Shown piece by piece: positions 6,327-51,764 of a DNA stretch of 64,000 bases; positions within the stretch are counted from its first letter, which is position 1; each line of letters begins with the position of its first letter. Below the pieces are notes generated by a model that saw nothing but the letters and a program-made list of their open reading frames with translations, was not told the DNA's origin and made no database searches. The translations under genes were made by a program, and so were the position numbers. This DNA is from Okamejei kenojei (taxonomy: Eukaryota). The DNA is taken from positions 21,576,001-21,640,000 of the forward strand of contig CM069140.1 of the NCBI GenBank assembly GCA_035221665.1, read 5' to 3'.

Positions 6327-7242
6327 TAAGTAAGTAGTAAGTAATTTTTATTTATAATAGCACTTTTTAAAATCAAATCACGTTGAAGCCATAGTGCTCT
6401 TACCAGAGAAGAAATTTTAATTTTCCATACATACCGATAAACAGAAAAAAGAAAAAAAGAACACAGATACACTATAGGAATCAACATGAATCGTCCCCCC
6501 ACAGCAGAATCCACTGTGAGGGAAGGCAGCAAAAAGTCCAGTTCTCCTCCTCCTCAATAGTCCCACCCCGAGGTCCGGGGGCCCTAATTTGTGGCCTCCG
6601 CAGCCAGTCCGACTATTTGTAAGCCCTCTTGCCGAGAAGCTGGAACACTCCGCGTTGGTGAAACACTGCCTCTGTTGTTAGGAAATGTCTCTGAAGCTGG
6701 CCACCGCGCTCCTCCCCGCGAGGCTGCGGCGCCCGGAGTCCCTCGGGCTGGCGCTAGATTGGAGCTCCGACTTGGTGATCTCGGATCCCAGGCTCCTTCC
6801 GCGCGTGTTTAAATCCAGCATCGCCCGCCCTGCGCGGCTGTAATCGCCCCAGTCCCTCAGCTCCTCGACGTTGGAGTCAGCAGTCACTAGCACTCCAGAG
6901 CTTACCGCACAGCGACTCCACGGTAAGGCATTCGCTCGCTCCGTGTTTGGTTATGTCCCAGCACTGTGTGCGCGGCCGCCGAAGCAGTGGTCGTTCAGTA
7001 GGAAACGCCGCTCCAGCTCGATGGTAGGCCGCACGGAGAGGACGAAGATGCGATTCAGAGGAAAACCGCATCTCCAACCAGGTAGGAATGGGATTAATAC
7101 AGTATCCCCACACTGCCCCCCTCCCCCCCACCCACCCACCACCACATATAAAAAGATTAGACCTCCAAATAAAAGTTTTAGACACTAAAAAGGGTGAAAA
7201 GACGGACTGCAGGCAGGCTGTCACTCCTGCACATCCGCCAAA
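6327..7242 (-). mobile_element. GC-rich non-autonomous retroelement with (TTAC)n tail
   Basis: 7-bp TSD agctgag at 6320-6326 and 7243-7249; minus-strand 3' end aagtgctattataataaaaattacttac. Confidence 0.65.
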
Positions 7243-7736
7243 AGCTGAGGGTGGTTTTGATTGGCAGATGGTTGGATAAAGGTCAGTGATGAAAAGACAT
7301 AAGGTGGTGAGATGAGGAGAGAATTGGCAAGAAATGTGAAGTCAGAGGAAGGGGAAATGGATGCACATCCAGATGGGACACGGAAGAGGGGAGGTTAAAG
7401 GTGGGAGAGGAGGCATCCAAAGTGGAATACAATGTGCTGTTTCTTATCTCACCATCTTTTGCCTTTTCAACTCTAGCTTTTGTCCAACCATCTGCCAATC
7501 AACCCCCCACCCCTGTATCACTCGCCAGCTTTGCCTTGCCCCCACTGCTCTTCCACATTTATCCTTCCTGTTACAATCCTTCTATGGAAGGATCATTATC
7601 TGAAACACAACCTATTCATGTTCTCCAGAGATGCTTTATGACATGTTGAGTTACATCAGCACTTTGATTATTTTTTCTTATTTTTGGAAGTTATTTGTAC
7701 CAGTCATAATTCTGATTTAGATTTGGTTATTTTCAG

Positions 7737-9725: not shown

Positions 9726-10906
9726 TCTATATTACTAAAAGTCTGATCTTGACCACTTCCTGTTGTTCTGTGCATTTATTTTAGAAAAACGCTGCCACTT
9801 AGAGTCCCCCTCCGCTGCGCAGGACGAGGATTTTTCCCATGGATTAAAAATAAGAGTTATTAGTGTTTAAAAAATGTTGAGATTCTCTCTCCTGAAGGCC
9901 ACGCCCCTTCCGGAGGGACTATCAAACCCAGAAGTGTTGAGTGCCTCAGTCAGACTCTGCAAGATGGGGGAGCGAGAGGGTCACGTCTCTCAGTCTGAGC
10001 TGTGAATAACACTGAACACATGTTTACTAAACTGAGTGTGGTTTTACTGACCTTGAGTGCCCTTAATGTGGTTTGAAAATGAAAATGTGGTTAGTTTGAA
10101 ATAAAGCACAGCAAATGGTTGCTGTGGTTGGTTTGAAATAAAGCACAGCAAATAGTTGCTGGTGGTTGGTTTGAAATGGCAAATGATTAAAAGTTTAAAC
10201 TTGACAACTTCCTGTTTGCACTATATATTGATTTTAGATTAAAAAGCTACCACTTAGGGCTGTGATTTTTGGCCATCTTACTGAGCCCCCCTCCGCTCAT
10301 CAGGTGCAGAGGATTCTTCCCATCAATGAAAAATAAGTGTTATTAGTGTTTTAAAAATGTTGAGAATCGCTCTCCTGTCAATCACGCCATGGAAGCCATG
10401 AAATGGCATGAAACTGCACTTGAATTTGGTGGCCTTGCACCCTGCTTGAAGTGGCATGAAACTGCACTTGAATTTGGTGGACTTGCACCCTGCTTAAAGT
10501 GGCATGAAACTGCACTTGAATTTGGTGGCCTTGCACTCTGCTTGGTGGCATGAAACTGCACTTGAATTTGGTGGCCTTGCACCCTGCTTGGAGTGGTAAG
10601 AAACTGCACTTGAATTTGGTGGCCTTGCACCCTGCTTGAAGTGGTATGAAACTGCACTTGAATTTGGTGGCCTTGCACCCTGCTTGGTGGCATGAAACTG
10701 CACTTGAATTTGGTGGCCTTGCACCCTGCTTGAAGTGGTATGAAACTGCACTTGAATTTGGTGGCTTTGCACCCTGCTTGGAGTGGTAAGAAACTGCACT
10801 TGAATTTGGTGGCCTTGCACCCTGCTTGAAGTGGTCGGAAACTGCATTTGAATTTGGTGGCCTTGCACCCTGCTTGAAATGGAATTTCAAGGAATAGCTG
10901 TGTCAA
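9726..10906 (+). mobile_element. Helitron-like non-autonomous element (3' end not seen)
   Basis: A|TCTATATTACTAAAA start; internal diverged duplication (about 9747-9894 vs 10200-10377); short tandem repeats and minisatellite. Confidence 0.45.
10403..10878. repeat. minisatellite, 10 copies of a 46-48 bp unit
   Basis: unit gtggcatgaaactgcacttgaatttggtggccttgcaccctgcttgaa, head-to-tail. Confidence 0.97.
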
Positions 10907-10984
10907 ACTTCTTCCAAAATATACTGAAAGTCCCAATTTGATGAAATGGTATTAAAAAGTTTCAATTATATGTATTTTGACAGG

Positions 10985-23297: not shown

Positions 23298-23430
23298 AAA
23301 TCAGGATTTCTCGACGAGTATCTATAGCCGCACCAAGGAATAGTGGGAGACAGGAAGGGCAGCACTCTAAGGACAAAAACGCCATCAGCGGAATGATTGC
23401 TTGGGAAAGTGGATACAGAAAATCATTCCA
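23298..23430 (+). CDS. SMG7: SMG7 coding exon, corrupted (N.DFS..HQGIVGDREGQ...RHQRMIALGKWI..NH)
   Basis: tttaaag acceptor; cac caa gga ata gtg gga gac and ttg gga aag tgg ata recognisable across several indels; correct position in exon order; boundaries approximate. Confidence 0.7.
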
Positions 23431-25181
23431 GTATATTTGCGTCAACTGAAATTAGGGTTTAAAATCACGATTTAAGATGAACAAATTACATTTGGCTGAC
23501 AAGTAGCTTACCAAGGAAAGATAATTTGAATCATTTTCATTTAAACTTTAATTTCATCTTAGAATTTTTCCCAAAAAACACAAACAAAACAATGACTTGC
23601 TTCTCTGATGACCAGCAGTTTTATCCAATGGGTCTGAGCCTTCAAACCAGAAGGGTTCTTAGTTTATCTCTGACTTGCATTGGCTATCTGCTGCCAATGC
23701 AGTATTATAATTGCCGCTGGTTTAATGTTTAATGTTCTACAGCAATTAGGTAATATATGGACAGACAGTATTGGCCTTGTTGCAGTTAAAGTATCTTTAG
23801 TATTTTTTGGAAAAGGGTAAAAATAAATTTGTGCAATTAAAGGACAGATTGATTTTTTTACACCTCCAGAAATCTATCAACACATTAGAAAGGAGGGTAG
23901 AGGAAGTAGGCAAATTTGATAATGTATAAGATGACCACTGTAATTTGTTGACATGGCCAAGCATAAAACTTACATACAGTAACTAATTACACTTATAATT
24001 GGTAGGTTTGTTAGTATTTATATGTTTGAAAACTTTAGTTTGTGCCTAAAAAATTAAATTTATATTCCTTAAATTGTGTGGTATTGACGCATTGCAATCT
24101 CTCACAGAATTGCAAATGAAAAAGCTATAAAAAGATTACTTAATATTCTCTGGACATGGTCTTATTTGGGCACTTTGCCCTTTTGAGGCAATGCAGTCGT
24201 AAGGTTTCTCCTTGTTAACCATCTTCTAACCCCTTTTTTCCCACAAAGACATGTTTAGTGGATCCAGATTCTAGCAGAAGAAGGGCTGGACAAGCTTCTC
24301 ACAAAAATATGCTTTCGCTCCATCCTGTCCGCTTAATATTGAAGCATTGATTTTTTTTACAATTTAGCCATGAGACTCATGGGAATAATTTGGCTCAAAA
24401 TCCATTATCTAATCTTGTGCAAGGAGCTAAAATAAAGACACTTAAAGAGAAGGTAAATATCATGTAGTTTGCTATTTATGACTGTTATTGGAACAAAAAT
24501 GCGAGATCTGAAATTTGAAACGAAGCATAATCAAACATCACATCAACACGGCCATGCAAGAAAGAAATCAACTGCAGTTTATCTTCTTTGGAATTTGAAG
24601 AATGAGGGAATATAAATTTATTTGATTGCACAGAGGAGACAGGGAAGAAAAAAACAATGGTTAAGAATGCTGTTGTCGACCACATTGCCAATAACTTCAT
24701 AAAACAATCGGTCAGAGACGATAAAGAAATCTGATTGAAACATAGTATCATACAACTTGGGTGAGGTTCAAACTTTATATTGGAGGGGGCGAGTGTGACA
24801 CATATCTCTGTTTTTTTAAGATGATGGCTTACCACGACACATTTCAACTACCAGGTACACTCTATCTCACACACACCACCCAGTTCAAGCCACACCAACA
24901 CTGCCCCTTTCTGCAACTTAAAGCATGTTTGGTTTTTCACGTTCCCACTTCTGAATGAAGGGGCCTTGACCTGAAATGTTGCTTAATCTCCGACAGATCT
25001 TTTGAACATCCTCACCAGTACTTTTGAAGAGTTGTGCTTGTTTCATTAGGAAAAAAGATAAATGCCTGCGCTGAGTACAGAAAACTCCAAGAAATGTATT
25101 CAAACATGTTAGGCTTGAAGATTTATTAAGAGATTGATTTACGGCTTCAATGCATTTTTAATTATTATAAATAAGACATAT

Positions 25182-25580: not shown

Positions 25581-26365
25581 CTGGGTAGGTTAAGTCACTC
25601 AAATTATTATATCATTCAGTCCTAAAAAACTATTTACTCCAAGTAATCAGCTATAGTCGATTTGTCGTCAACTCCACTGCTACTTAGCTTAATTCAAATA
25701 TCCCTTGCAAATACAAAGCTAATCTATTTGGTCGCTGTTTTTTTAAATTTTCAAATAGATATTGGGAATGATGTTTCAGATTCTTCACATACCGTTAGTT
25801 TGACAATGAGCAGCAAACTAGCAATAGCTCTCTCTCAACCTCCCGTTTCAGAGGATAATGCCTCTTTGATCATTAATGTCAATTTAACTTTCCTTTCTCT
25901 GCTTATATAGAACTTCAATGCCCTTTAGTCTCCAAGCAATCAACAGTAGCCACGCTTTTTTGTGTGTAAAAGGGGAAGGGCGATGTGTGTTTATCACTAA
26001 TATATAAGTTATATTGAATCAAATAGAAGTATTTAAAGTTTGGTCTAATGCTTACTGAAGGAAAAAAATGGACAGCCCAGAATCTCCATGGAAAGTATTT
26101 CTTACTATTGCCCTGCCAGAATTTTTTATTTTTATGGTCACGTGCTTTGTTCTGGACTCTCCGAGGGGATGGGGGGATTAGAGCCATTCCTATTCATCTA
26201 TCTTACAAGTCACCGTCACTCATTCAACATATTTATATTAATCTTTGATTTACTATACCAAATGGAATCCAATGTTGTGAATGCAAACCATTATAATTTA
26301 ATCTGTTTGCTTCCGTTAAAGCAGGTTATGTGTGCATATTTTCTCACGAGTTGTTAATTTCCCAG

Positions 26366-26792
26366 ACTTATCCAGAGCAGAAATGAAGAAGGTAAACTAG
26401 TGTTCGTAACTGACATCCCGGAATTGGCTAACGAAGAGTCATCTGAAACAAAGGACAGCCTGATTTTACTGGAACCTCCCTTTTCAGAACCAACTAGTGT
26501 TGAGATTGGTCAAGGTTAAATCTGTTTGTCATCAGTCAAGACCACAGAGTAACAGTTTTCCGAAAGTGGAGAGAAACTGGTTACCTTCAAGGAGAATATT
26601 AAACCACGAGAACAGAATCGGAATCATCATCAGAAAGAAGGCATGAAAGAAAGATGGGACTATAACAAAGGAAATGATATTGCAAACAAAATGGATGTAA
26701 AAAGAGAGAGCAATAAAAGGAAGACTGAACCAAAGAAAAATAATCAGGACAAGAACCTGGAACATGCTCGGAAACAGAATGTGGCAGTGCAG
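26366..26792 (+). CDS. SMG7: SMG7 coding exon with local frameshift noise
   Basis: cccag acceptor, CAG|gtaggg donor; LIQSRNEEGKLVFVTDIPEL...EKLVTFKENIKPRE...KRKTEPKK...RKQNVAVQ; apparent TAA at 26517 and 26550 where GLKSVLS is expected. Confidence 0.9.
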
Positions 26793-27290
26793 GTAGGGAA
26801 CTGCCTTTTTCTTTGCATTGACATATGAAGTTTCTTGGAATAGAAATTCTTTCATTTAGAATGTATTGCATTTGAACTGGTGTGTCAACTGACTAGCAAT
26901 CGCCAGTCAGATTGTGGATTGAAAAAGTTTCATTAAAAAAAAACTTGAATATGAGTAACAAAACATTTTAGACTCACTGCATTTGATTATTGTCCTCGTA
27001 CCTTAATCATAAGTAACCGATAGTTTATGAACATTAAATCCAAGGCCTTTGTTACTGTCGAGGTAAGCACTAAAGATTCTGGCAAAAAGAAGTCTTTACA
27101 GTTGTCCTTGAAGGTCCCCCGACAAATGACATAAATTAATGGACCCGGCCAAGTATTTATTACTTCTTATAGCAATTCACTCGCAAAATTATAGCAATTT
27201 GGCTCGCTCTCGAAACGAAAACATTATGGAGTCATCTAAACTTTTGATCATTGCATACTATAAACTATGAAAAAACAGGCAGTACAACAT

Positions 27291-29024: not shown

Positions 29025-30927
29025 GAGATGGAGTTAAGAAGCATCTAAGGCAGTAGACATTGGTGGGAGTTGTCTATAGGGCTCCAGTCTGTCATATGAA
29101 GCGCAGGATGGCATCCAACGGGAAATTACAGATGGATGTAACATTGCAGTAATAATGGGTGATTCCAATCTACATTAAAAATTGTCTGAAACACATTAAT
29201 AATGCAGAGATGGGGGGAAAAAAGTTTTTTCCCATATGATTGAAACATAAGTACAACTGTGATTGTGGGGTGAGGTTAAAAACAATATGGTTAAATTATT
29301 GGGAGGGGGGAAGATGAGATTGAACTATTTAAGGTAACCATGACTGCACCTTATCTCATACACCACCTGTACTCACCCCCACTGCCCCTTCCTGCAACTT
29401 AAAACATGTTCCACTTCCAATGAAGTGGCTTTGACCTGAAATTTTTCATTTCATCTCACCCTGCTTTTTGACATCCTCACTGTTTGCAGAATTTTCTGTT
29501 TCGTACAGTTAACAATTTATTTTGGGTTCTGTGTGCTCTATAGACACACTTGCTTTCACTTAAATATATTATAATACTGAAGTGCAGGGAATTCTTATTC
29601 CTTATTTTATGTGCTTATAACTGATTGAGGATTTATTACAAAATTGATTTAAAGGCAATGCAATTAAATTGAATTGAAATAAATGTTATACCATAAATGT
29701 ATGCATTCAAGGTAATTTTGCCCTTGGTGCTTTGATTGCAAGGATAACAACATATAAACATAAATAATTAAAAATAAAATATTATAATTTAAACATGTGA
29801 AGAATAAAATAAAATACCAGTGCAAAAGGACGCTACAGACTTTTGGCTTTGAGTAGAGCTTACTGTTACGTGGAAAAAAGCTGATTTTTTTGTCTGGCTG
29901 TGACGGCTTTGACAGTCCGTAGTCGCCTCCCAGGGGGAAGTACTTCAGAGTTTGTGGCCAGGGTGAGAGGGGTCTGAGTTTATAACCAAGACCAACATTA
30001 AACAGGGGCAGGGTAGTTTGTTATTCAGCCTGAAGAATCTATTTCTCCAAGTAACTAGACCATGGTCAATTTGTATTTCAACTCTAACTGCATAGTTGGT
30101 TTCATAATCCTAGCCAAAGAAAAATCTATTGGAACTGTTATGAAATTTTTTAATGTGTTACCCAAAAATGTTTCATTTTGGGAATGAATGAAAAGAATGA
30201 GCAGGAATTCGACCTTTTCGAATTTAAAAGATGTATCCCTTGGCTGGAAGATGTTGACAGCAAGGGATCAATCTCAGGACATAGCACGACATTTATGACT
30301 GAGACAAGAAGAATTTATTTTCTCTCACAGGATCATGATCCTGTAGAATTGTCATACAGGAGGTGGTGGAGACCTCCTACTTTTAAAAGGGATCAATAGA
30401 GGCCTTGACATAAAATATATCAAGGTAGTCTTGAGATAGAAGATTGGCAGTGTTTGTATTGAATGCAAAACAGGCACATATGGCAGAAATGCCTCATTTT
30501 TTCTGTTTCCACATACAGTGAGTTGCAGGAAGATGATTCGTGACATGAAAACATATTCTCTCAAAACATATAATTTACTAATCTTAAAAGTATAAAGAAC
30601 TATATGTCTGTATTTAAATGGGCACTATGATGTTTGGTGCGCAGTTTGGAGTATTGTAATAGTATCTGAGTAGTGCTAACTACAAAATAATTATCCTCCT
30701 TTGATACATACTCCATTGAGCAATCAATAAAAAGTGGCATACGGGCAATTGAGTGAACATTTAATTTCTTAAAATTAAATGTTAATCACAATCGGCATTG
30801 GACTGTTGTGAAGAAACCTTTTCCCAACTATGTGTTTTAAAACATTATTGTCAGTAATTTGAAATGTGGCAAACTGTTAAATCATCATTCTGTAAACAGT
30901 AATGTGCTTGCAAAGTCATTGATGATG

Positions 30928-31999
30928 TAAGCCACCCAATAAGCGAGTTTGGTATTCCGACTGCGCATGCCCAGGTCACAGATCACTAGCTATAAAGTCT
31001 CGGCAACGGTGGTGCTGCATTGTGTGCAGGCTTGCGTTTCATTCGTGATCGGGGTCGGGGCCTGGTTCTCCGTGCCGGCGGGTGCTCTTGAGTTGCTGCT
31101 AGGCCGTCCCCGTCCCTCCCCGGTTCTCCCCGTCCCACATGCCAGAGGTGTCCGGGTGCCCTGGGCTGGCGGGGCGGCTCCTGACTTGCAGCCGCTGGCT
31201 CCAGCATCGGCTCTGTCTGTCCCCCGACGGGATGGTCGCAGCCATACCTCCACCCCCCTCCCCCTCAGTCCGACACCGCGATCCTGCTGAAGATGGGCAG
31301 CCGCTGGCTCCAGCTCGGCTCTGCCTGTCCCGCCGGGTTGGCTGGCAGCCCTCTACCTCCACCCCCCAGGCAGCAGCAACCTCCTCCCCCTCCCTTGCCC
31401 AGCCGCAAGCTCAGAGTCCGGATCAGCTCCAACTCCAGATCGGGGCTGAAGGCCGTCCGCAGCGCGGCCCAGTCTAGCGCCGGTCCGGAGGAGGCTGAGC
31501 CCAGTCTAGCGCTCTGACGCAGGCGAGGCCGGGGCCCTCGCTCCTTCTCGGGGTTGTGGATGAAGTGGCAGTGGGTACCTTAGGGGCAGAAACCGGTGGT
31601 GTGGAAGGTACGTCTTGTACTTGGGGTTGCGGCTTAGGGAGCGCAGCTCAGGCCATGGGCGAACTGGCACTTGTTGCCGTAGCGGCCCATCGGGGAGCGG
31701 GTTCCCCGAGTTGGATCGGGTGTGGCTGAAATTGCCCGCTGTATTGGTTCCTCCATGCTGGGCCTGGGGGCCGGTGTCCCGTTGGTCCCGGAGCTCCGCT
31801 GCCCCCCGGCTGGGATGAACACTTGGAGTGGGTGTGGAGGGGAACCGGTACGGTCCAGTGGCGGTTCAGCAAACTATACTCACTGAATCTACAGTGCTTC
31901 GTTCGATTTTTATTTTAACGTTCGACCTTTGACAAATCCCATATTGCTTGCGTTTTTTTGGAAATCCCGAACTCGCTAATCAATGGAATTTCTGGCTTA
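30928..31999. mobile_element. putative non-autonomous DNA transposon enclosing the ZFP36-like fragment
   Basis: taagcca..taagcgagtttggtattccga (30928-30960) is an imperfect inverted repeat of ttggaaatcccgaactcgctaa..tggctta (31958-31999); sharp GC transition; no clear TSD. Confidence 0.5.
31265..31875 (-). pseudogene. decayed tristetraprolin/ZFP36-family (tandem CCCH zinc finger) gene fragment
   Basis: minus strand RYGNKCQFAHG/ELRSLSRNPKYKT/TFHTTGFCP*GTHCHFIHN..RPRLRQS and C-terminal RLPIFSRIAVSD-stop; deletions in both fingers, frameshifts, in-frame TAA at 31580-31582. Confidence 0.9.
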
Positions 32000-34377
32000 T
32001 TAGAAATCGCAAAAGTCTTAGTCGTGCAGCATGGAAACAGGGTCCCCGTCGACACACCAGGCCATGCTGGCCAAGATGCCCCATCTACACAGTAACCCAC
32101 CTGCATGCACTTAGCACATTCTCGACTGTAATATGGACTGTCCTCAAGACATCTCTATTAACTGTCCTAAGTTCCCAGGCCCTTGTGTCTTTCTGCACAG
32201 TAAAAACTGAGAGAAATACTTATTGAGGACCTTGCCCATCTCCTGCAATTCCACACAGAGATGACCACTTTGGTTTCTAGAATAGGGGCCCTATTCTCTC
32301 TCTACCTGCCCTCTATCCCTTAATGTACTTCAAATCACTTTGGATTTTCCTCATTATCTGCCAGAGCTAGTTCCTGACATCTTCATGCCCTCCTGATTTT
32401 GGTTGTAAGATGTTATTATTTAGTATCTTGCCACGGCAGATGTGTCAGACCATCATGTAGAATAAAATTCTTGGAATTTATGTTCTTCAGTCATTAAATA
32501 ATCTTTTACACTTCAATACAATAAAGAAAAAGAAACGTGCTTTTTTGTAATAACGTCTGCCTGAACCAGTAGCGAGAAATTTGGTTTAATCTTACATCTA
32601 ATGTACATGTACAACATATTATCTTTTTTGCTCCAGTACTGCAGTTATCTCCAACAAGCTGCTTGCTGGAAAAAAAGGTAAACCTAAGGATGAGCCGAAC
32701 ATGTTTTCAACCTTTATGCGCACCATTCGAGAGACAAAGCATCCCAATCTGGTACTGATATACAAATCTGCAGTACTACAAAGTTACATCTTAAAAACGC
32801 AGTTCAATTCGGCTTGCGTTTGACTCAATTGTATGAGAATGTGGGTCCTTCCATTTAGACATTCAGAGACAAAGGTCCTCTCAGTAAAATTATTGCATTT
32901 TTGCCCTTGAAAGTTCAATTCACAGCAAGCATCGACAACATGGAATCAAAATTTAATTTGCTCAGGTGCTATATTTTGCCAAAGGTAGATATCATTACCA
33001 AAATTCACCACTGTCTGTGACTGAAGAGAAGAATTTTCAGAGATAAGCATTGAATATCCAGCGCAGAAGTGATCCCTGTGTAGACATGGGCAAAAGTACA
33101 GTAGGCACCATAAATATAGGGGAAGTATAACCAATGTATCCTCTGCAAAGTCCTTCAAGTGTACGATGAGCCACAGTGTCCACATCCCTGACGTGAGACT
33201 CCCAAAAAGAGCAACAAGATTTCCAGGAGAACAGAAAATATTTTAAGAATGGCTCTGAATCGCCCAACAATATTGTAACATCCTCACCCACTTATTATCA
33301 ACTCCAGTCCATGATCATTTAAATTGAAAGAGGAGCAACTGGAAAGGCATCTAACATTAGACAATCCACCCACCCACACATTCAAGCTGCACTTGTGTAT
33401 CGTATATTGGGATCAGTAGCCGATGCAGAATACATAGATGGAGAATGGAAGTACTCATCTTCATCCCTAAGGGAATGCTTACGATGAGAAGATTGAAGTG
33501 CTAGTCTATTTTGTGCTGAAATTCTAGGTTGAGTTTGAATCCACAATCTACTAAAACTCCATGTACTGATATTTTGTGGCATTAAATTTCTGCTGCTGCA
33601 ACTCAAAATATGTTCCTTGTTCCAAGCTAGATCAAATATATCTGTGGTATTACAGTAAAACTTTAATCTGCTATCGGACCATTTGAACATCCCAATGATT
33701 TGGCATCTGGTTTGCAAAGGACCTGGTTCCCACATCCTGGAAACTTGCCCCTTCACTGGAAAATGTATTTAGAATGTTGTTGTCTTTTTTTTAAATTATG
33801 AATGGATATTGTGTTGGAATATTATCATGAAACACACCGTCTTAAAATCTGAAAAATCAAAAAAACTGAAAGATTGTGGAAATCTAAAATAAAAACAAAA
33901 AGCTGGAAATATTCAGCAGATCCAGGCACTTCTTTAGGAATAGTTAACATTTCAGGTGGAAGAAGGTTTTAATGTATTCTCAAAAGAGAACTTGAACTTA
34001 AAAAAATATATAGGTTGTCAGACAGGATACTTGACTCTGCATGTCCATAGACACATTTACGCTTCAAACCAAGTCATGACCAGATCTATCTGGCGCACAA
34101 TGAAAGATAATCCTAGAAACTTGTGGAAGTATTTTTCCTTTCAGTTTTTTTTTTAAAGGAACTTTAATGAGCATTTGATTTAGAATTAGCTGTCAAAATG
34201 TTCGTTAGAAATTAATTTTGGGCATGAAGATTTTGTAGTTTACTTAATCTGTCGAAGTAGAGGGAAAATCTCAAGTTTGCAATATGTCTTGCCGATATAA
34301 GCAAGGATTGACTTTGGTCTGAATAAGATGTAATCTTTTTTGATATTATGCATTATAATGCTAAATTTGTTTATCAG

Positions 34378-34522
34378 GTAAAAGCTCAGTCTGAATTGCG
34401 AAAGACGCCTGTATCGGAGGCAAGGAAAACACCAGTGACTCAGTCACAAAACCAAACCAGCAACTCGCAGTTCATTCCCATTCACCATCCAGGAGCGTTT
34501 CCACCTCTTCCTAGCCGGCCGG
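34378..34522 (+). CDS. SMG7: SMG7 coding exon
   Basis: tatcag acceptor, G|gtgagt donor; VKAQSELRKTPVSEARKTPVTQ...SQFIPIHHPGAFPPLPSRPG. Confidence 0.97.
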
Positions 34523-35374
34523 GTGAGTGAACAGTTGTATGTTTCAATGTGGGATGTTATAAGTCAACTCAAGTTTATTATCATATGCACGGGACATGAT
34601 GAGGTACAGATGCAAATTTCTGCTTGCAGCACACAGGCAAATAGATAGAAACACAAAGCCATATTTTATACATAAATTACTCAAGTTCTGAAAGATGGTG
34701 AAAAAATAAATAACTGCAAAAAAAACCCCAAGACATTGGTGCAAACTACAATTCGAAATCAAATCCATGATTGTGCAAGAGGTCATTCCCAGTGGCAGGA
34801 TTGGGGTTGTGCAGGTTGGTAAGAAAGTAGCTGTGCCTGAAAACTGTGGACTTCAAGATCCTGTACCATCTCCCTGGCAGATAGCAGCAAGCTGTGCTAT
34901 TCCATGCAGTCATGGGTGTAAAGAGCAGAACGGGGCTAAGTGCACTGTCTTATAAATTCTTATTGTGCTTGACAGGATAGAGATAAGGTTAATGGCACAA
35001 CATAAGAGGTCAGCCATTAACACGGGCTCAAAACAAATCTTCATTCACTTTCTGTGAGGGCTGTGGAGGCTCAGTTGCTGAATGCATTAAAAACTGAAAA
35101 TTATAGATTTTTTAAATCACCAGGGATTCAAAGGAAATGGGTTAGTGCAGGAAAATAGCTGAGATAGGAAAAAATACCCGGTGACATGTGGAAAGGTCCT
35201 CTTTCTCCTTGGAATGAGTCTCCACAATTTTCAATTGTAAAACACCGAGAAAGGGTTGACGTTGTTACTGACCATTGCTAGGCCAACTTGTTTTATGGTG
35301 CCTTTCCATTGCACGCAATAGACTGGCATGTCTTATAATGACCAGTATTTCTGTCTTTTTGTGTTTAATTGTAG

Positions 35375-35730
35375 GGTTTTCCGCCACCTTCCCTACCTGG
35401 TGTCCGCCAACCAGTTACTTTCGCAGATGACTCCGTGCTAGTCATGCCACCTGGAGTGTCTATTACCTGGACCTTTCACCACTACTGCCACCCCACAAGC
35501 AGCAAACCAGGTACCAGGTGGGAAGCTCGCCCACCGTCCCTTACTGCCAGCACGTCCTTCTGGGCAAGGGCCAATAAACCAAGGGACTCCCAGCAACAAT
35601 CACATCAATCTCAGCAACAGCATCCAAGTCACTCCATCCAATCGAGCTTCAGTGCAGTTTGAACCAACATCGCCCACTAAGTCGGGGCGCAACAGTTGTG
35701 TGAAAGAATCAAACATCATCTACAGCCATG
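35375..35730 (+). CDS. SMG7: SMG7 Pro/Gln-rich exon with multiple frameshifts
   Basis: ttgtag acceptor, gtaagg donor; fragments GFPPPSY.., PPGVS, PGTF, PSGQGP, QQQSHQSQQQ, SPTK read in shifting frames. Confidence 0.8.
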
Positions 35731-47139: not shown

Positions 47140-48793
47140 ATAGAAACATAGAAACATAGAAATTAGGTGCAGGAGTAGGCCATTCAGCCCTTCGAGCCTG
47201 CACCGCCATTCAATATGATCATGGCTGATCATCCAACTCAGTATCCCGTACCTGCCTTCTCTCCATACCCTCTGATCCCCTTAGCCACAAGGGCCACATC
47301 CAACTCACTCTTAAATATAGCCAATGAACTGGCCTCAACTACCCTCTGTGGCAGAGAGTTCCAGAGACTCACCACTCTCTGTGTGAAAAAAGTCTTTCTC
47401 ATCACGGTCTTAAAGGATTTCCCCCTTATCCTTAAGCTGTGACCCCTTGTCCTGGACTTCCCCAACATCGGGAACAATCTTCCTGCATCTAGCCTGTCCA
47501 ACCCCTTAAGAATTTTGTAAGTTTCTATAAGATCCACTCTCAATCTCCTAAATTCCAGAGAGTATAAACCGAGTCTACCCAGTCTTTCTTCATAAGACAG
47601 TCCTGAAATCCCAGGAATCAGTCTGGTGAACCTTCTCTGCACTCCCTCTATGGCAATAATGTCCTTCCTCAGATTTGGAGACCAAAACTGTACGCAATAC
47701 TCCAGGTGTGGTCTCACCAAGACCCTGTACAACTGAAGTAGAACCTCCCTGCTCCTGTACTCAAATCCTTTTGCTATGAAAGCTAACATACCATTCGCTT
47801 TTTTCACTGCCTGCTGCAACTGCATGCCTACTTTCAATGACTGGTGTACCATGACACCCAGGTCTCGCTGCATCTCCCCTTTTCCTAATCGGCCACCATT
47901 TAAATAATAGTCTGCTTTCCTGTTTTTTGCCACCAAAGTGGATAACCTCACATTTATCCACATTATACTGCATCTGCCAAACATTTGCCCACTCACCCAG
48001 CCTATCCAAGTCACCTTGCAGTCTCCTAGCATCCTCCTCACAGCTAACACTGCCCCCCAGCTTAGTGTCATCCGCAAACTTGGAGATATTGCCTTCAATT
48101 CCCTCATCCAGATCATTAATATATATTGTAAAAAGCTGGGGTCCCAGCACTGAGCCCTGCGGTACCCCACTAGTCACTGCCTGCCATTGTGAAAAGGATC
48201 CGTTTACTCCTACTCTTTGCTTCCTGTTTGCCAGCCAGTTCTCTATCCACATCAATACTGAACCCCTAATACCGTATGCTTTAAGTTTGTATACTAATCT
48301 CTTATGTGGGACCTTGTCGAAAGCCTTCTGGAAGTCCAGATATACCACATCCACTGGTTCTCCCCTTATCCACGCTACTAGTTACATCCTCGAAAAATTC
48401 CACAAGATTCGTCAGACATGATTTACCTTTCGTAAATCCATGCTGACTTTGTCCAATGATTTCACCACTTTCCAAATGTGCTGCTATCCCATCTTTAATA
48501 ACTAGCAGTTTCCCCACTACCGATGTTAGACTAACTGGTCTGTAATTCCCCGTTTTCTCTCTCCCTCCCTTCTTAAAAAGAGGGGTTACATTTGCTACCC
48601 GCCAATCCTCAGGAACTACTCCAGAATCTAAAGAGTTTTGAAAGATTATCACTAATGCATCCACTATTTCCTGAGCTACTTCCTTAAGTACTCTGGGATG
48701 CAGCCTATCTGGCCCTGGGGATTTATCGGCCTTTAATCTATTCAATTTACCCAACACCACTTCCCGACTGACCTGGATTTCACTCAATTCCTC
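47140..48793 (-). mobile_element. young 5'-truncated CR1 LINE with RT domain (about two frameshifts)
   Basis: KSPGPD, NYRPVSLTS, YLDFQKAFDKVPH, GVPQGSVLGP, FADDTKL, LVRPHLEYCVQFWSP; (agaaacat)n tail. Confidence 0.97.
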
Positions 48794-48887
48794 AATTTAA
48801 AGAGGCCAATGAACTTACAAACTGGCACGTCTTTGGGATGCTATTTAAAAGTAAGCGATGGCAATTTAAAATAAAGACAACCTCAAG

Positions 48888-50177: not shown

Positions 50178-51764
50178 AGTTACCTGGATCAGTGGAACCT
50201 CTTTTGGGGAAGGAGTGACCTGTATAAAAAGGACGGGTTGCACTTGAACCCGAGGGGGACCAGTATCCTGGCAGGGAAATTTGCAAAGGCTACTGGGGGG
50301 ACTTTAAACTAGAACGGTTGGGGGGAGGGACTCGAATAGAGAAAGCTAGTAGGCAGGAGGCAGAGAAGGGAAGCACTCAGACCCAACATGTAGGGGGGAA
50401 AGAAGAAAAAAATAATAAACAGAGAATAAAAGGTGGTGGGTTTCCAGGGCAAAAATCAAAAGGGGCCACTTGTCAACGTAATTGTATAAGGAGTAAGAGT
50501 GTTGTAAAAACAAGCCTGAAGGCTTTGTGTCTCAATGCGAGGAGCATTCGTAATAAGGTGGACGAGTTGAATATGCAGATAGCTATTAATGACTATGCTA
50601 TAGTTGGGATCACGGAGACATGGCTCCAGCAGGACCAAGGCTGGGAGCTGAACATCCAGGGATATTCAATATTCAGGAGGGATAGACATAAAGGAAAACG
50701 CGGTGGGGTAGCGTTGCTGGTGAGAGAGGAGATTAATGCAATAGAAAGGAAAGACATTAGCTTGGAGGATGTGGAATCGATATGGGTAGAGCTGCGAAAC
50801 TCTAAGGGGCAGAAAACACTAGTGGGTTGTGTACAGGCCACATAACAGTAGTAGTGGAGTTGGGGATGGCATCAAACAGGAAATTAGAAATGCGTGCAAC
50901 AAGGGTAAAACAGTTATAATGGGTGACTTCAATCTACATATAGATTGGGTAAATCAAATGGGCAGGGGTGCTGAGGAAGAGGATTTCTTTGAATGTATGC
51001 GGGATAATTTTCTAAACCAACATGTAGAGGAACCAACGAGAGAACAGGCTATTCTAGACTGGGTATTGAGTAAAGAGGAAGGGTTAGTTAGCAATCTTGT
51101 TGTGCGTGGCCCCTTGGACAATAGTGACCATAATATGGTTGAGTTCTTTGTTAGGATGGAGAGTGATATAATTAAGTCAGAAACAAGGGTTCTGATGACC
51201 ACACCTGGGGTATTGCTTACAGTTTTAGTCTCCAAATCTGAGGAAAGACATTCTTGCCATAGAGGGGGTACAGAGAAGGTTCACCAGACTGATTCCTGGG
51301 ATGTCAGTACTTTCATATGAGGAAAGACTGGATAGACTTGGCTTGTACTCGCTAGAATTTAGAAGACTGAGGGGGGATCTTAGAGAAACTTACAAAATTC
51401 TTAAGGGGTTGGATGGGCTAGATGCAGGAAGATTGTTCCCGATGTTGGGGAGGTCCAGAACAAGGGGTCACAGTCTAAGGATAAGGGGGAATTCCTTTAG
51501 GACCGAGATGAGGAAAACATTTTTCACACAGAGAGTGGTGATTCTCTGGAATTCTCTGCCACAGAAGGTAGTTGAGGCCAGTTCATTGGCTATATTTAAG
51601 AGGGAGTTAGATGTGGCCCTTGTGGCTAAAGGGATCAGGGGGTATGGAGAGAAGGCAGGTACAGGATACTGAGTTGGATGATCAGCCATGATCATATTGA
51701 ATGGTGGTGCAGGCTCGAACGGCCGAATGGCCTACTCCTGCACCTATTTTCTATGTTCCTATGT
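50178..51764 (+). mobile_element. CR1 LINE with ORF1 end, APE endonuclease and an internal deletion removing RT
   Basis: ORF1 esterase-like DGLHLN; ORF2 CLNARSI, GITETWL, GDFN, SDHN; jump at about 51193 to the PHL.Y C-terminal region; tctatgttcctatg tail. Confidence 0.95.

Follow-up and report, generated by a model that had tools for sequence, protein, structure and literature searches.

The window analysed in this study, a stretch of 64,000 nucleotides from the skate Okamejei kenojei, holds SMG7 on its plus strand, which tblastn with three skate SMG7 proteins resolved into 16 coding segments. Fourteen of these 16 segments are about 88-100% identical to skate SMG7 and one merged match is 67% identical, and the exon at 36539-36850 matches SMG7 of cartilaginous fishes, with the best matches in skates (25 hits among 45 candidates). 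An insert bearing a piece of a ZFP36 gene sits antisense in a 7.6-kb SMG7 intron, between the exons at 26364-26795 and 34375-34524. The original prediction had placed it antisense inside SMG7, and this position is borne out: the host gene is on the plus strand, the cargo is on the minus strand and the site is intronic. The island rich in GC and CpG that had been described at the same place is also found, with 62% GC and a CpG observed/expected ratio of 0.71 over 30928-31999, against 0.39 for the window. The exons on either side of the insert are:

26364..26795, plus strand: SMG7 exon 5' of the insert, residues 472-615, 88-92% identical to skate SMG7, 4.1 kb away.
34375..34524, plus strand: SMG7 exon 3' of the insert, residues 614-663, 98-100% identical to skate SMG7, 2.4 kb away.

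Parts of the stretch were found in 20 of 24 public runs, the five runs of organism A holding 0.48-0.61 of its words; no RNA run appeared among these 20, which has no bearing on expression. Four DNA runs were compared at 80% likeness, one each from organisms A, C, E and F (X1, X7, X16 and X19; X16 is the run of organism E). The depth of the unique flank was 20 in X1, 88 in X7, 43-52 in X16 and 11 in X19, and the contig evidence rests on the 15 of 356 joints, 24 of 2192 loose ends and 32 of 19745 pieces that were listed.

Several other features of the window were observed. The SMG7 exons at 23331-23444 and 35375-35728 carry many frameshifts, and tblastn did not find the exon for residues 413-439; the frameshifts are likely patches of assembly error rather than gene decay. 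A second island rich in GC and CpG (57-61% GC), which is unlike the ZFP36 element, lies at 6501-7250 in an SMG7 intron and is probably another repeat insertion. A tandem array at 10378-10951 yields long repetitive open frames on the minus strand. Endonuclease- and reverse-transcriptase-like frames, in both orientations, occur at 47238-48796 and 50228-51672 within one SMG7 intron and resemble parts of CR1-type LINEs. The right flank of the insert, 32002-32370, is an old repeat of very high copy number (bin depth 8613-29101 in X1 over 32006-32297), presumably the tail of a LINE-related repeat.

Read along the plus strand, the insert consists of the following parts, with depths given as multiples of the flank:

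30928..30937, no strand: outer TAAGCCA motif, the earlier left end; inverted match to 31993-31999; outside the end common to most members.
30938..31058, no strand: left arm, with the family terminus, the inverted-repeat arm 30938-30959 and an imperfect palindrome at 30959-30977; summed depth 357-4124 times flank.
31059..31187, no strand: variable GC-rich spacer; few copies at 80% likeness, skipped by several joints.
31188..31258, minus strand: segment 3' of the ZFP36 stop codon, 85% identical to 31297-31367.
31265..31303, minus strand: C-terminal motif RLPIFSRIAVSD and stop, 11 of 12 residues as in skate parents.
31297..31367, minus strand: local duplicate of the post-stop segment, in place of the His/Ser-rich linker (parent residues 229-277).
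31370..31687, minus strand: captured coding piece of ZFP36 exon 2 (tblastn and frameshift-aware alignment).
31688..31690, minus strand: non-parental ATG, in frame with the captured half of finger 1 (frameshift-aware alignment).
31691..31859, no strand: segment upstream of the cargo, low copy in three organisms and strongly amplified in organism E.
31860..32001, no strand: right arm, with the repeated segment 31860-31945, the inverted-repeat arm 31960-31981 and the outer motif (depth and inverted-repeat alignment).

The spacer at 31059-31187, with point depths of 66-280 in X1 against a flank of 20, may come from parental 3' sequence or from the element, and 31188-31258 is likely the start of the parental 3' UTR. 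An N-terminal ZFP36 origin of 31691-31860 was considered and dropped, as frameshift-aware alignment gave no convincing match.

The imperfect inverted repeats that had been proposed to bound the island are real in the sense that their score was reached by none of 2000 dinucleotide shuffles and by 9 of about 5000 window pairs, a chance estimate to be read with the fact that the stretches were picked after the repeat had been seen. The left boundary had been set at 30928 and has to be moved, since the end of the family lies at 30937/30938, ten bases further in. The right end would be at 32001, as judged from the matching pair AATAAGC/GCTTATT. Short subterminal inverted repeats (30943-30959 and 31960-31976) are placed 5 nt from the left end and about 25 nt from the right end, and a weak hairpin at 31987-32007 (-2.4 kcal/mol), the right half of which overlaps the neighbouring old repeat, may be due to chance. 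Both ends are two-tiered (30928-30959 and 31960-32001), with an outer TAAGCCA and an inner TAAGCGAG-like motif. A flank contig of X16 stops exactly 30 bases past 30928, and given this stop there could be a small subfamily that shares the outer end at 30928.

No target site duplication (TSD) was found at 30928/31999, at 30938/32001 or at neighbouring pairs in this one old copy, for which erosion or assembly error is possible; the scan gave a single 4-mer within the arms and, at a boundary other than that of the family, two 7-8-mers that overlap and contain a mismatch. The predicted lack of a poly(A) tail and of an AU-rich 3' UTR is upheld, as ATTTA, AATAAA and ATTAAA are all absent downstream of the stop and no tandem tail is present. 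Within the 64-kb window, self-BLAST and a pattern search gave no second copy of the ends, and searches for the end motifs in viral, metagenome and prokaryote collections gave 1, 2, 0, 0 and 1 loci, all of them isolated chance matches of 19-21 bases. The three Rfam matches (E 1.9-4.7) are all far below the gathering score, and Pfam on the six frames gave zf-CCCH matches only, weak and below the cut-off.

The cargo itself is recognisable. Remnants of both CCCH fingers, as had been claimed, align to skate ZFP36-family proteins with E values of 1e-31 to 1e-40. The captured piece starts at 31687, after the second Cys of finger 1, and runs along the parent to a Gly/Cys run at 31370, so that the remnant of finger 1 is without its first two Cys; finger 2 is without its first Cys and is interrupted by a stop. 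Frameshift-aware alignment showed deletions of 4 and 11 nt and a stop at 31582. Eleven of 116 aligned codons are changed relative to both parents tested, and the other 105 keep the residue of at least one parent. In place of 49 residues of the parental linker stand 22 codons that derive from a duplicate (71 bp, 85% identical) of the sequence behind the stop, after which RLPIFSRIAVSD and its stop resume in frame. Therefore, the 104-codon frame at 31579-31265 on the minus strand, which is present, stop-free and ends in RLPIFSRIAVSD-stop as had been described, is a by-product of this rearrangement, is chimeric and has no Met. Among 984 candidates, its best relatives are four batoid-type ZFP36-family proteins, with a Rhinoraja protein at the top (E 3e-34). 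The C-terminal motif of the TTP family binds NOT1.

In a quick tree of 77 rows, the cargo nests with skate proteins (SH-aLRT 99), and together they fall inside a clade of 16 chondrichthyan rows (support 100), apart from the L1, the L2 and the C3H-4-like rows, the last being four-finger proteins. The nesting of the cargo among skate proteins indicates that the capture likely took place in the skate line. The 77-row tree left the link between the parent clade and TTP open, and in a 32-row quick tree (LG+G4) the parent clade joins the TTP-side group at a support of 96, 'TTP' being the analyst's own label, anchored on one row (P0205) that resembles PDB 1M9O. In the 32-row tree, a union of the parent clade with L1 was rejected (p-AU 0.004), as was a union with L2 (p-AU 0.001), with rows for L1 and L2 that are all from outside the chondrichthyans. 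The database names of the proteins in the parent clade are inconsistent. A closer relation to ZFP36/TTP than to ZFP36L1/L2 had been proposed, and the AU tests speak for it; the reason given from RIAVSD does not hold, since the A is a change in the SMG7-intron copy and all skate parents read RISVSD.

The source of the cargo is thus the chondrichthyan ZFP36/TTP paralog (XP_078287002.1, XP_055519735.1 and XP_032870229.1), compared with which the cargo lacks the N-terminus, three finger Cys and 49 linker residues and has an internal stop. The parent is on contigs of 12.4-16.7 Mb in three skates and SMG7 is on contigs of 61-62 Mb in two of these. Therefore, the element likely acquired its cargo from a different chromosome. 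In vertebrates, zfp36 comprises two exons, the second of which encodes the fingers (PMC3546996, in excerpt). Since the captured part lies within one exon, as judged from that gene structure, capture from DNA and capture from RNA are inseparable by intron loss.

The prediction of many dispersed copies with the same end is confirmed by 124-304 junction contigs per run, which have unrelated flanks, and the cargo is multicopy too. Among the rows listed, the loose ends before 30937/30938 comprise 122 and 182 contigs in X1, 95 and 157 in X7 and 114 and 157 in X19, and in X16 at least 124 contigs (one row listed). The end is sharp, and the flanks beyond it agree with their consensus at 0.33-0.36, that is, they are unrelated, and they are AT-rich; 3' transduction by the neighbouring old repeat is ruled out by these many unrelated flanks. 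Record 11 of X16 represents another locus, with 450 letters of unrelated flank followed by 30936-31116. No loose ends were seen at the right end among the 24 of 2192 rows listed, and in X1 the depth at the left end exceeds that of the right arm about 27-fold.

Across the four bins that cover the coding part of ZFP36 (31422-31713), 14 of the 16 values, one per run and bin, put the summed depth at 60-433 times flank; the remaining two, both from X16, put it at 2433 and 7375 times flank. Summed contig depth is not a copy number, since overlapping short contigs inflate it, and more weight is therefore placed on contig counts. Many distinct cargo pieces of 160-330 nt occur at single-copy depth in all four runs, and the 19 pieces listed all differ from the window by 12-18% (median 14%). 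The stretch 31466-31554 lies in five distinct X1 contigs with depths of 9-21, close to the single-copy value of 20, and at most one of these contigs can be the parental locus. The right arm at 31915 has 59-106 times the flank depth, with contigs that share an insertion and are each at about single-copy depth. Among the joints listed, those from 31040-31059 to 31297-31304 show that in other copies the left arm is linked with the 3' end of ZFP36, and those from 31364-31367 back to 31261 show that other copies keep the stop and then the downstream segment; beyond 31369-31373 other copies are unlike the window. A fair estimate is that about 100 or more cargo-bearing copies are present per genome.

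The segment 31714-31859 has a depth of 1-14 times flank in X1, X7 and X19 as against 72-1385 times in X16, and over the whole of 31568-31859 summed depth is 72-7375 times flank in X16 (organism E) against 1-265 times in the other three runs. The amplification of the finger-1 and upstream piece is specific to the lineage of organism E, perhaps as a subfamily burst or a derived satellite.

With regard to the SMG7-intron copy, contigs from the unique flank enter the left arm in X1 (to 30964), X7 (to 30963) and X16 (to 30957), which is 20-27 letters past 30938, below the bridging rule of 31 letters but an overlap that chance would rarely produce; X1 possibly comes from the very sample that was assembled and does not count as independent support. 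The left junction recurs in two further organisms, and the insertion is therefore old. Orthologous flanks differ by 0.5-7% between organisms as against the 12-18% between copies, and therefore the burst likely preceded the split of the four organisms. No piece spanning the element or the right junction was found among the pieces listed, and no flank-to-flank joint, as expected of an empty site, among the 15 of 356 joints listed; X19 is without cover at 30692-30910 and is uninformative. All X1 contigs differ from the letter of the window at 31228, 31245, 31729-31748, 31803-31818 and 32018. Because of these mismatches and the frameshifted SMG7 exons, fine detail of the copy may include assembly errors. 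The cargo at 31609-31370 aligns to P0001 over 240 nt without a gap, and it is therefore unlike an assembly error patch.

Taken together, the insert is a decayed copy of a dispersed skate repeat family that carries a ZFP36-side fragment, and it is fairly probable that it was spread as a non-autonomous DNA transposon, the short inverted ends of which would have been recognised by an enzyme encoded elsewhere and acting in trans. That a non-autonomous mobile element had captured the fragment, and that the insert is no ordinary retrocopy, had been proposed from the sequence alone and is supported by the dispersed copies with the same end, the multicopy cargo and the missing poly(A); of the usual marks of a processed retrocopy, neither a poly(A) tail nor a TSD is seen, and the sequence is not single-copy. 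The history of the family can be outlined in the following way. In an ancestral skate, a founder element would have acquired a colinear part of ZFP36 exon 2 that runs from the middle of finger 1 beyond the stop codon. The parental gene, on another chromosome, would probably have been copied by template switching or gap repair, according to models set out in PMC8277862 (in excerpt). The loaded element then multiplied to roughly 100 copies or more, a number estimated here from diverged copies that are seen with unrelated flanks, alongside relatives with the same left arm that are cargo-less or differently loaded. The SMG7-intron copy sits antisense and has decayed by the two deletions, the stop, the codon changes and the linker-replacing duplication that are seen in it, and it may now be carried neutrally, removed by splicing together with the intron.

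The further claim, that the carrier is an element with terminal inverted repeats (TIRs), stands in part: the inverted ends are above chance, but cut-and-paste transposition is not established, no TSD was found, no autonomous partner turned up in the sequences searched and the ends are uneven. That the enzyme was a cut-and-paste DDE transposase is possible rather than probable. The insert shares with Pack-TIRs a host-derived interior with a parent, short imperfect inverted repeats (the right terminus by inference) and a dispersed left end in common, and it is not filed as a cut-and-paste Pack-TIR because the TSD test failed. Such capture had been called rarely described in vertebrates, which is overstated, since 370 Pack-TIRs, 81 of them vertebrate, are reported from 100 animal genomes (PMC8277862, in excerpt). 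Animal Pack-TIRs likewise have host sequence between transposon arms with inverted ends, and the multicopy cases lie far from the parent, as inferred for the skate element (PMC8277862, in excerpt). They differ in that their carrier is a known TIR family, by the same excerpt, whereas the carrier here is unclassified and no TSD is seen. Moreover, nearly all of them are single-copy: among non-redundant Pack-TIRs of reference genomes, four (1.4%) are multicopy, three from frog and one from alligator, with an example of three transpositions, whereas the skate cargo is present in about 100 or more copies in four organisms (PMC8277862, in excerpt). Plant Pack-MULEs also hold fragments that were captured in trans, re-transposed and decayed in coding capacity, but the skate element has neither their long TIRs nor their 9-10 bp TSD (PMC8277862, in excerpt).

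Among the alternatives for the carrier, a non-autonomous Helitron2/Helentron (HLE2), moved by rolling-circle transposition, is unlikely and yet shares several features with the insert. Members such as DINE-1 and HINE have the same short asymmetric subterminal inverted repeats, internal repeats and no TSD, the inverted repeats being of 12-16 nt and accompanied by a stem-loop (PMC11417382 and PMC4067079, in excerpt); here the short repeats are asymmetric, a weak stem-loop lies past the right one, no TSD is found, one end is the more abundant, and an internal duplication and variable deletions are present. Bat Helitrons, moreover, amplified gene pieces to up to a thousand copies (PMC4224331, in excerpt). 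However, HLE2 insert between T and T (PMC11417382 and PMC4067079, in excerpt), and such a site is not seen in the skate element. About 40% of junction contigs have a C immediately before the shared end, G is the commonest base among the rest, and the SMG7-intron copy has CCC, provided that the end is at 30937/30938, as this test assumes; the true end could be 1-2 bases further out. The terminal hairpin is weak, its right half overlaps the old repeat, and it may be a matter of chance.

A non-autonomous element of the Crypton type, which a tyrosine recombinase would have integrated without forming a TSD, seems quite unlikely. The sharp end with a biased adjacent base and the missing TSD agree with it, and the end of the element may resemble the ends of fish CryptonA. 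Animal Cryptons are described as without TSDs and with abundant non-autonomous derivatives (PMC3212892 and PMC13465315, in excerpt), but also as without terminal repeats (PMC3212892, in excerpt), whereas the skate element has inverted arms.

Spread through RNA, as a SINE-like or other non-autonomous retroelement with its 3' end at 30938 on the minus strand (the ZFP36 sense), is rather doubtful. The most abundant end is indeed the 3' end in the ZFP36 sense, as in 5'-truncated retroposons, and the cargo has no intron. However, the end is sharp to one base without a poly(A) or tandem tail, no RNA head was found in Rfam, and inverted repeats are present at both ends. The far arm, at 59-106 times flank, is of the same order as the cargo, the excess being confined to the last 120 bp; since the far arm is as repeated as the cargo, the excess in depth does not follow a gradient of truncation. 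A single decayed retrocopy or duplicated fragment between unrelated repeats, with its depth inflated by GC-rich cross-matches, or a misassembly, to which the missing spanning piece, the likeness of 80 and the frameshift patches in SMG7 might point, is very improbable in view of the many cargo pieces at single-copy depth in four runs, the arm-to-cargo joints elsewhere and the left-junction contigs in three of four runs.

Returning to the preferred reading, a captured fragment amplified by a non-autonomous DNA transposon, a parallel in copy number is found in bats, where Helitrons such as HelibatN3/NUBPL are non-autonomous DNA elements that carry host gene pieces at tens to a thousand copies (PMC4224331, in excerpt). 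Bat Helitrons have TC...CTRR ends and are inserted between A and T (PMC11417382, in excerpt), but neither skate end fits and inverted arms are present; the 5' TC, the 3' hairpin with CTRR and the A-T insertion given there for Helitron1 are not seen at the ends of the element. No report of ZFP36-carrying repeats in skates was found among the top-ranked papers listed or in a skate genome preprint (10.1101/2025.06.08.657570, in excerpt), and the family may exist unclassified in Repbase or Dfam. Gene capture itself is known in vertebrates, and the unusual part is the copy number of a captured coding fragment.

A further sequence bears on the ATG at the start of the captured piece. P0292, a Logan contig of 1385 nt with 180 residues, has a Met-Gly start that aligns with the ATG of the window at 31690, where the parent has Phe-Cys, and it is open from Met-Gly to RISVSD. 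The same non-parental Met-Gly start suggests that the junction and the ATG are ancestral to the family. The body of P0292 has 174 identities and 3 mismatches with P0293 and shares a derived residue with Leucoraja; since it is near-identical to the modern parent, P0292 is maybe a chimeric contig or a product of gene conversion rather than an intact old copy. It is either an open element copy or a chimeric contig. It is conceivable, although rather improbable, that the ATG of the founder made a mobile mini-gene of truncated tristetraprolin, with one intact finger and the NOT1-binding tail, which spread to hundreds of copies across skates by a route without TSDs (Helitron2 or Crypton type) and of which at least one copy, for example the source of P0292, is open, expressed and damps or retargets ARE-mediated decay.

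A meaning in the pairing of an ARE-decay fragment with an NMD gene is not supported. This end is inserted at hundreds of sites or more, of which SMG7 is one, and its position is likely incidental, one landing site among many. That the SMG7-intron copy was kept for such a link, for example through antisense RNA from SMG7 pre-mRNA acting on ZFP36, can hardly be credited: the antisense position, the left junction in three organisms and the CpG richness agree with it, but the copy is one of hundreds of sites, lies 2.4-4.1 kb from the exons and shows decay that looks unselected, and close relatives would be expected to share any insertion that is old and fixed.

High-copy captured coding sequence has so far been reported mainly from bat Helitrons, and a piece of an mRNA-decay regulator multiplied about a hundredfold across skates would be a clear case from cartilaginous fishes. 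With so many copies, the capture junctions could be mapped and the carrier classified. Annotation of skate ZFP36 and read mapping are open to confusion by copies of the element, and copies that lie antisense in introns could give rise to small RNAs directed at the parent.
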